Below the pieces are notes generated by a model. The model did not search any database, had not been told where the DNA came from, and saw only the letters and a program-made list of their open reading frames with translations. From NCBI RefSeq assembly GCF_013122565.1, contig NZ_CP053258.1: a DNA stretch of 64,000 nt; one strand, 5' to 3'. The stretch is from Escherichia coli (lineage in GTDB: Bacteria > Pseudomonadota > Gammaproteobacteria > Enterobacterales > Enterobacteriaceae). The translations under genes and the position numbers were made by a program. Each line of letters begins with the position of its first letter. The first letter of the stretch is position 1. This document shows, piece by piece, positions 16,452 to 16,694 of this stretch.

Positions 16452-16694
16452 GATGTAATCCTTGTGCAGACAAATTTCTTGTTACCTAAACGTAACAATA
16501 CCATGACATTTCACCGTTGTCTGCTCTGAAAAGCTCACCTCTTAGCTGGATTTACAATCAACGCATTGATTAGTTAGCTAATGTTGCTACTTCCTTCCCT
16601 GACTATTGATGATCTGAATGAATTGTCGCGGTAAAATAGCCCCGCCAGGGGTTTCCGGCATGACGACAATTATCTGGAGGAGCCTGATAAAACA

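Follow-up and report, generated by a model that had tools for sequence, protein, structure and literature searches.

In Escherichia coli K-12 a copy of IS5 lies between the divergently transcribed genes ynaJ and ynaI, whereas in the 64-kb stretch of E. coli DNA analysed here (the window) the two genes are separated by a short and uninterrupted spacer. Two questions follow: which of these states is ancestral, and whether the absence of the element bears on the expression of ynaI.

The ynaJ/ynaI spacer and the IS5F target site

In the window, ynaJ (16194..16451, minus strand) is an 85-aa open reading frame for a small membrane protein of the DUF2534 family, annotated in matching E. coli genomes, and its product gives a full-length match to Pfam PF10749 (DUF2534; E 4.5e-41, profile positions 2-79 of 80). 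Its neighbour ynaI (16695..17726, plus strand) encodes 343 amino acids and is identified by both Pfam and annotation as a low-conductance mechanosensitive channel. The scores of PF21088, PF00924 and PF21082 exceed the respective Pfam gathering thresholds, and the MscS transmembrane helices 2/3, the beta domain and the C-terminal domain are all present, so YnaI is predicted from its domains to be an MscS-family channel. The uninterrupted region between the two open reading frames (16452..16694) measures exactly 243 bp, in agreement with the divergent pair about 240 bp apart described in a first-pass annotation of the sequence. The genes around it run ogt, fnr, uspE, ynaJ, ynaI and mppA, which is the K-12 b1335-b1329 region reversed. 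An Rfam scan of 700 bp (16100-16800) at E<=1 returned no match, so the spacer contains no known sRNA or riboswitch.

The same annotation had placed an IS5 copy at this site in K-12. The MG1655 record (NC_000913.3) indeed carries 'insertion sequence:IS5F' at 1396044-1397238, with insH4 (b1331), between ynaI (b1330) and ynaJ (b1332). The spacer there is 1442 bp long, made up of 121 bp, the 1195-bp element and 126 bp, and so is far from equally short; CTAA directly abuts the element at both ends, and the terminal inverted repeats of IS5F match at 15 of 16 positions. In the orientation of the window, K-12 reads ...gattagTTAG[IS5]TTAGctaatg... where the window reads ...gattagTTAGctaatg..., with an unduplicated TTAG (CTAA on the minus strand) at 16574..16577, the exact point of the K-12 insertion. 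Alignment of the two intervals, which had been proposed as a way of finding the target-site duplication, accordingly gives one copy of TTAG/CTAA in the window and two in K-12. When the element and one CTAA are subtracted from the K-12 spacer, 243 bp remain, 242 of which are identical to the window; the sole difference between the window and this reconstructed empty site is at 16533 (G versus C).

In a blastn comparison of the whole window with 100 kb of K-12, the alignment is interrupted precisely at 16574-16577, where two segments (1875-16577 and 16574-19477) share 4 bp; these segments adjoin K-12 positions 1397239 and 1396043, so both flanks are collinear. The MG1655 ynaI-IS5F-ynaJ locus (NC_000913.3 1394891-1397622) has the same genes, gene order and flanking sequence as the window, but it also has IS5F and the second CTAA, neither of which is found in the window. 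IS5 inserts at CTAA and CTAG (PMC11677980), and the CTAA target at 16574-16577 fits this preference, which can be written YTAR. A search of the whole 64-kb window for the IS5 terminal repeat GGAAGGTGCGAAYAAG, allowing up to two mismatches, gave no matches. The presence of IS5 between ynaI and ynaJ, and with it the reading of the short spacer as an empty site, is not new: both follow from the annotation of K-12 and from earlier work on IS5.

Proposed promoter arrangement and a second insertion nearby

Conserved blocks within the spacer were sought in an alignment of 16 Escherichia and Citrobacter spacers. A scan of 16100-16800 for sigma-70 consensus promoters gave no match, so the promoter positions proposed here derive from cross-species conservation only. 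On the ynaI side, the conserved blocks GCTAAT, (A/G)ATGAT(C/A)TG and the invariant GTAAAATA are followed by a Shine-Dalgarno-like GGAG. TAAAAT (16632..16637, plus strand), which lies within GTAAAATA and is invariant in 16/16 aligned spacers, is most likely the -10 element of ynaI. On the ynaJ side, AACAATACCATGACAT and TTGTCTGC are both conserved across Escherichia and Citrobacter; TGgTATTGT (16495..16503, minus strand), within AACAATACCATGACAT, is a putative extended -10 of ynaJ, and the -35-like block CAGACA (16523-16518, minus strand) lies 17 bp upstream of it. The IS5 target sits between the ynaJ-side and the ynaI-side blocks, which would place the insertion point 55 bp upstream of the presumed ynaI -10 and ~71 bp upstream of that of ynaJ.

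The ynaJ side also holds a palindrome, TGTTAC-N6-GTAACA (16480..16497), which has AACAATACCATGACAT after it and overlaps the putative -10/+1 region of ynaJ. Its arms are conserved and its central spacer is variable across the 16 sequences, from Escherichia to Citrobacter, and it looks like a candidate operator. A second inverted repeat, ATCAA-N4-TTGAT, lies at 16557-16570. Both repeats were compared with the consensus sites of FNR, TyrR, Zur, PurR and OmpR, and none fitted convincingly. The window preserves ACA triplets close upstream of the start codons of ynaI (16691-16693) and ynaJ (16455-16457); ynaI and ynaJ have been listed among candidate MazF-processed transcripts (PMC5001579).

IS5 entered at TTAG/CTAA 16574-16577, duplicating the tetranucleotide and pushing the back-to-back promoter regions 1.2 kb apart; in the proposed layout, both core promoters would have stayed attached to their own genes. 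The K-12 insertion should separate the two promoter regions and destroy neither, and in the window the promoters would keep their native spacing together with any upstream sites that they share. The empty site had been put forward as relevant to ynaI expression, which is plausible in principle, but given this geometry the effect looks modest. A large effect is not expected because the insertion lies upstream of the promoter-like blocks and because ynaI mRNA is detectable in K-12, where qRT-PCR in strain Frag1 found it to exceed mscS mRNA (PMC3508906). As a K-12 strain, Frag1 should carry the IS5, and a ynaI promoter left intact despite the element fits the mRNA level reported there. It may be that the absence of IS5 makes little difference to ynaI expression. 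A literature search returned no study linking IS5 with the expression of ynaI or ynaJ. Elsewhere, IS5 insertions upstream of flhDC, glpFK and bglGFB provide cases of IS5-mediated promoter activation. IS5F in K-12 resembles these in lying upstream of promoters at a YTAR target (for background see PMC11677980), whereas the window lacks the element and an influence of IS5F on ynaI or ynaJ is a candidate effect.

The insertion point belongs to a cluster of targets, TTAGTTAGCTAA (16570..16581), in which three adjacent YTAR motifs (16570, 16574 and 16578), out of five in the entire spacer, are packed into 12 bp, and which has been used independently by two IS5-family elements. The second user is found in E. 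coli FDAARGOS_943 (5.27 Mb, not K-12), which carries a different element of ~915 bp (L002 4074-4988) with a frameshifted transposase and the ends GCTGTGTCCC...GGGACACAGC. The flanks of this element overlap at TAG, 16571-16573, at a distance of 1-3 bp from the K-12 site. In the same genome IS4-family elements flank the region and mppA is truncated.

Two IS5-family elements inserted no more than 4 bp apart in strains that are not related, both between the conserved promoter blocks and not inside them, raise the idea that TTAGTTAGCTAA is a recurrent insertion hot spot, preferred and possibly selected in the manner of the IS5 sites upstream of flhDC, glpFK and bgl, the occupancy of which rewires the expression of ynaJ and/or ynaI to a material extent. 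If so, much of the K-12-based physiology of YnaI would have been measured behind a promoter region that is not native, and YnaI expression would differ in IS-free strains like that of the window. We regard this as unlikely. Our population searches covered 5,426 complete genomes of E. coli. Of the 5,422 with a match, only ~11 lacked both the empty site and the K-12 junction, FDAARGOS_943 being the one inspected, which makes insertion at this point rare in nature. Since three of the five YTAR motifs are packed into TTAGTTAGCTAA, the coincidence of the two insertions is explicable by target preference, which may suffice by itself, and a connection between an IS at this site and ynaI or ynaJ levels is conjectural.

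Polarity of the change

Across the 5,426 genomes, the empty site was contiguous over a 150-bp probe centred on the insertion point in 5,056 (93%), and these genomes cover all host types. The K-12 IS5 junction was found on the ynaI side in 355 genomes and on the ynaJ side in 346. Sixty entries taken at even intervals from the ranking for the ynaJ-side junction were all of K-12 type, judged by name, source or genome size; the strains sampled include MG1655, W3110, DH5alpha, DH1, C600, J53, JM109, XL1-Blue, TOP10 and EPI300, as well as others classed by a genome of 4.5-4.76 Mb. The IS5F copy is present in ~6.5% of complete genomes, all of them K-12 type where inspected.

Outgroups were scanned with a degenerate pattern anchored on both start codons, using one representative genome per species. 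Spacers of 243 bp were recovered from E. whittamii, Escherichia sp. E1V33 and two divergent representatives of 'E. coli' species clusters, and spacers of 243-249 bp from eleven Citrobacter representatives and one MAG labelled Raoultella. Because the outgroups have the short spacer and the junctions are confined to K-12-type strains, the short spacer is ancestral and IS5 is an acquisition of the K-12 lineage, which upholds the earlier suggestion that the uninterrupted arrangement came first. These comparisons establish the anatomy of the locus, the direction of the change and its distribution in the population. With a probability of roughly 95%, the window holds the intact ancestral ynaJ/ynaI control region and represents the K-12 IS5F (insH4, b1331) site as it was before the insertion.

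All Escherichia spacers recovered are 243 bp long and align without gaps around the insertion point, so there is no sign of an earlier insertion followed by excision. For the same reason, the TTAGTTAG tandem was considered and rejected as a trace left by an earlier excision of IS5.

A lineage that had once carried the K-12 IS5 and then lost it by precise excision between the target duplications would be left with exactly the sequence of the window, and the short spacer would then be derived. Such a loss is very improbable, given that every junction genome listed or sampled is a K-12 derivative, that the empty site prevails across all host types, and that the same short spacer recurs in other Escherichia species and in Citrobacter. 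Moreover, over its 64 kb the window shows 1-3% divergence from K-12, and it is missing the K-12 Rac prophage; it is therefore not a K-12 derivative. Equally hard to credit is an assembly artefact in which an IS of the real genome was lost by collapse during assembly: multi-copy IS elements do get mishandled by short-read assemblers, but a collapse normally breaks the contig at the IS and would not be expected to leave a clean single-copy target site. The sequence of the window is also nearly identical to the reconstructed K-12 empty site and agrees with the state found in the great majority of complete genomes.

The ancestral arrangement of the window is matched in other non-K-12 E. coli (for example NZ_CP148401.1 and NZ_LR536431.1), where the ynaJ/ynaI spacer is likewise 243 bp and uninterrupted, with identity to the window of up to 99.6% over 1.4 kb and 99.3% over the 150-bp span; the G at 16533 in the window is a trivial difference. 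None of the 5,426 complete genomes matched the 150-bp probe at 100%, the top matches all being at 99.3%. Over 11 kb, the highest identity to the window among complete E. coli genomes is 97.9%.

At ynaJ/ynaI it is the K-12 reference that is atypical and the window that is ordinary, and the empty site is in itself of little importance. For work on ynaI/ynaJ regulation, and for promoter annotation transferred from K-12, the 243-bp native spacer is preferable.

Deletions beside IS5F and other differences in the window

The ynaI/ynaJ copy is one of the 11 IS5 copies of BW25113 (PMC11677980, Table 1), and detectable ins5A mRNA has been attributed to the nmpC copy only (PMC11677980). The same study constructed an isogenic strain from which the ynaI/ynaJ copy is deleted. 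Recombination between the b1331 IS5 and a second copy close to ogt has removed ynaJ-uspE-fnr from stocks of W3110 and MG1655 (PMC2072959). We found one assembly of C600 (L021, NZ_CM181231.1) with an IS5-adjacent deletion on the opposite side: IS5F is kept beside ynaJ, the other end of the element borders on a truncated gene for a ycjV-like ABC ATPase, and the interval from ynaI to ycjV is missing. The unequal junction counts on the ynaI and ynaJ sides (355 versus 346) are consistent with rearrangements of this kind. The IS-free locus of the window lacks the repeat behind both the ynaJ-uspE-fnr and the ynaI-side deletions of K-12 stocks.

The window departs from K-12 at several other places. 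It lacks the Rac prophage (K-12 1411899-1434958), and the ompN-uspF side is joined directly to the ttcA side at 1875-1917, a 43-bp overlap that looks like an unoccupied Rac attachment site. At 19448-19477, between mppA and mpaA, the K-12 segment pgrR-ycjY-ymjD-ymjC is missing; this segment spans ~2.4 kb in K-12 and ~5.2 kb where the genes are intact. The junction lies within 30 bp that align to K-12 on either side of this segment, and a contiguous mppA-mpaA junction was found in only 173 of the 5,426 complete genomes. Between tpx and tyrR, the window has a 2.2-kb segment (21858-24099) that is absent from K-12. It contains an open reading frame of 698 aa (21964-24060, plus strand) without a Pfam match; the few E. 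coli genomes in which it occurs have its product annotated as 'hypothetical protein' (WP_000342157.1), and an 11-kb query including the segment was covered to at least 80% in only ~30 complete genomes. At 49723-49725, ~120 bp of K-12 sequence (1362518-1362639, between puuR and puuC) are absent. Identity to K-12 is 96.8% over 24100-49725, as against 98.3-98.9% in the rest of the window.

Finally, the convergent genes uspE and ynaJ have between them, at 16165-16184, a GC-rich hairpin that carries T-runs on both strands. It is the ynaJ-uspE bidirectional terminator, which has served as a model in studies of RNA-polymerase collision (bioRxiv 10.1101/2022.10.23.513370).
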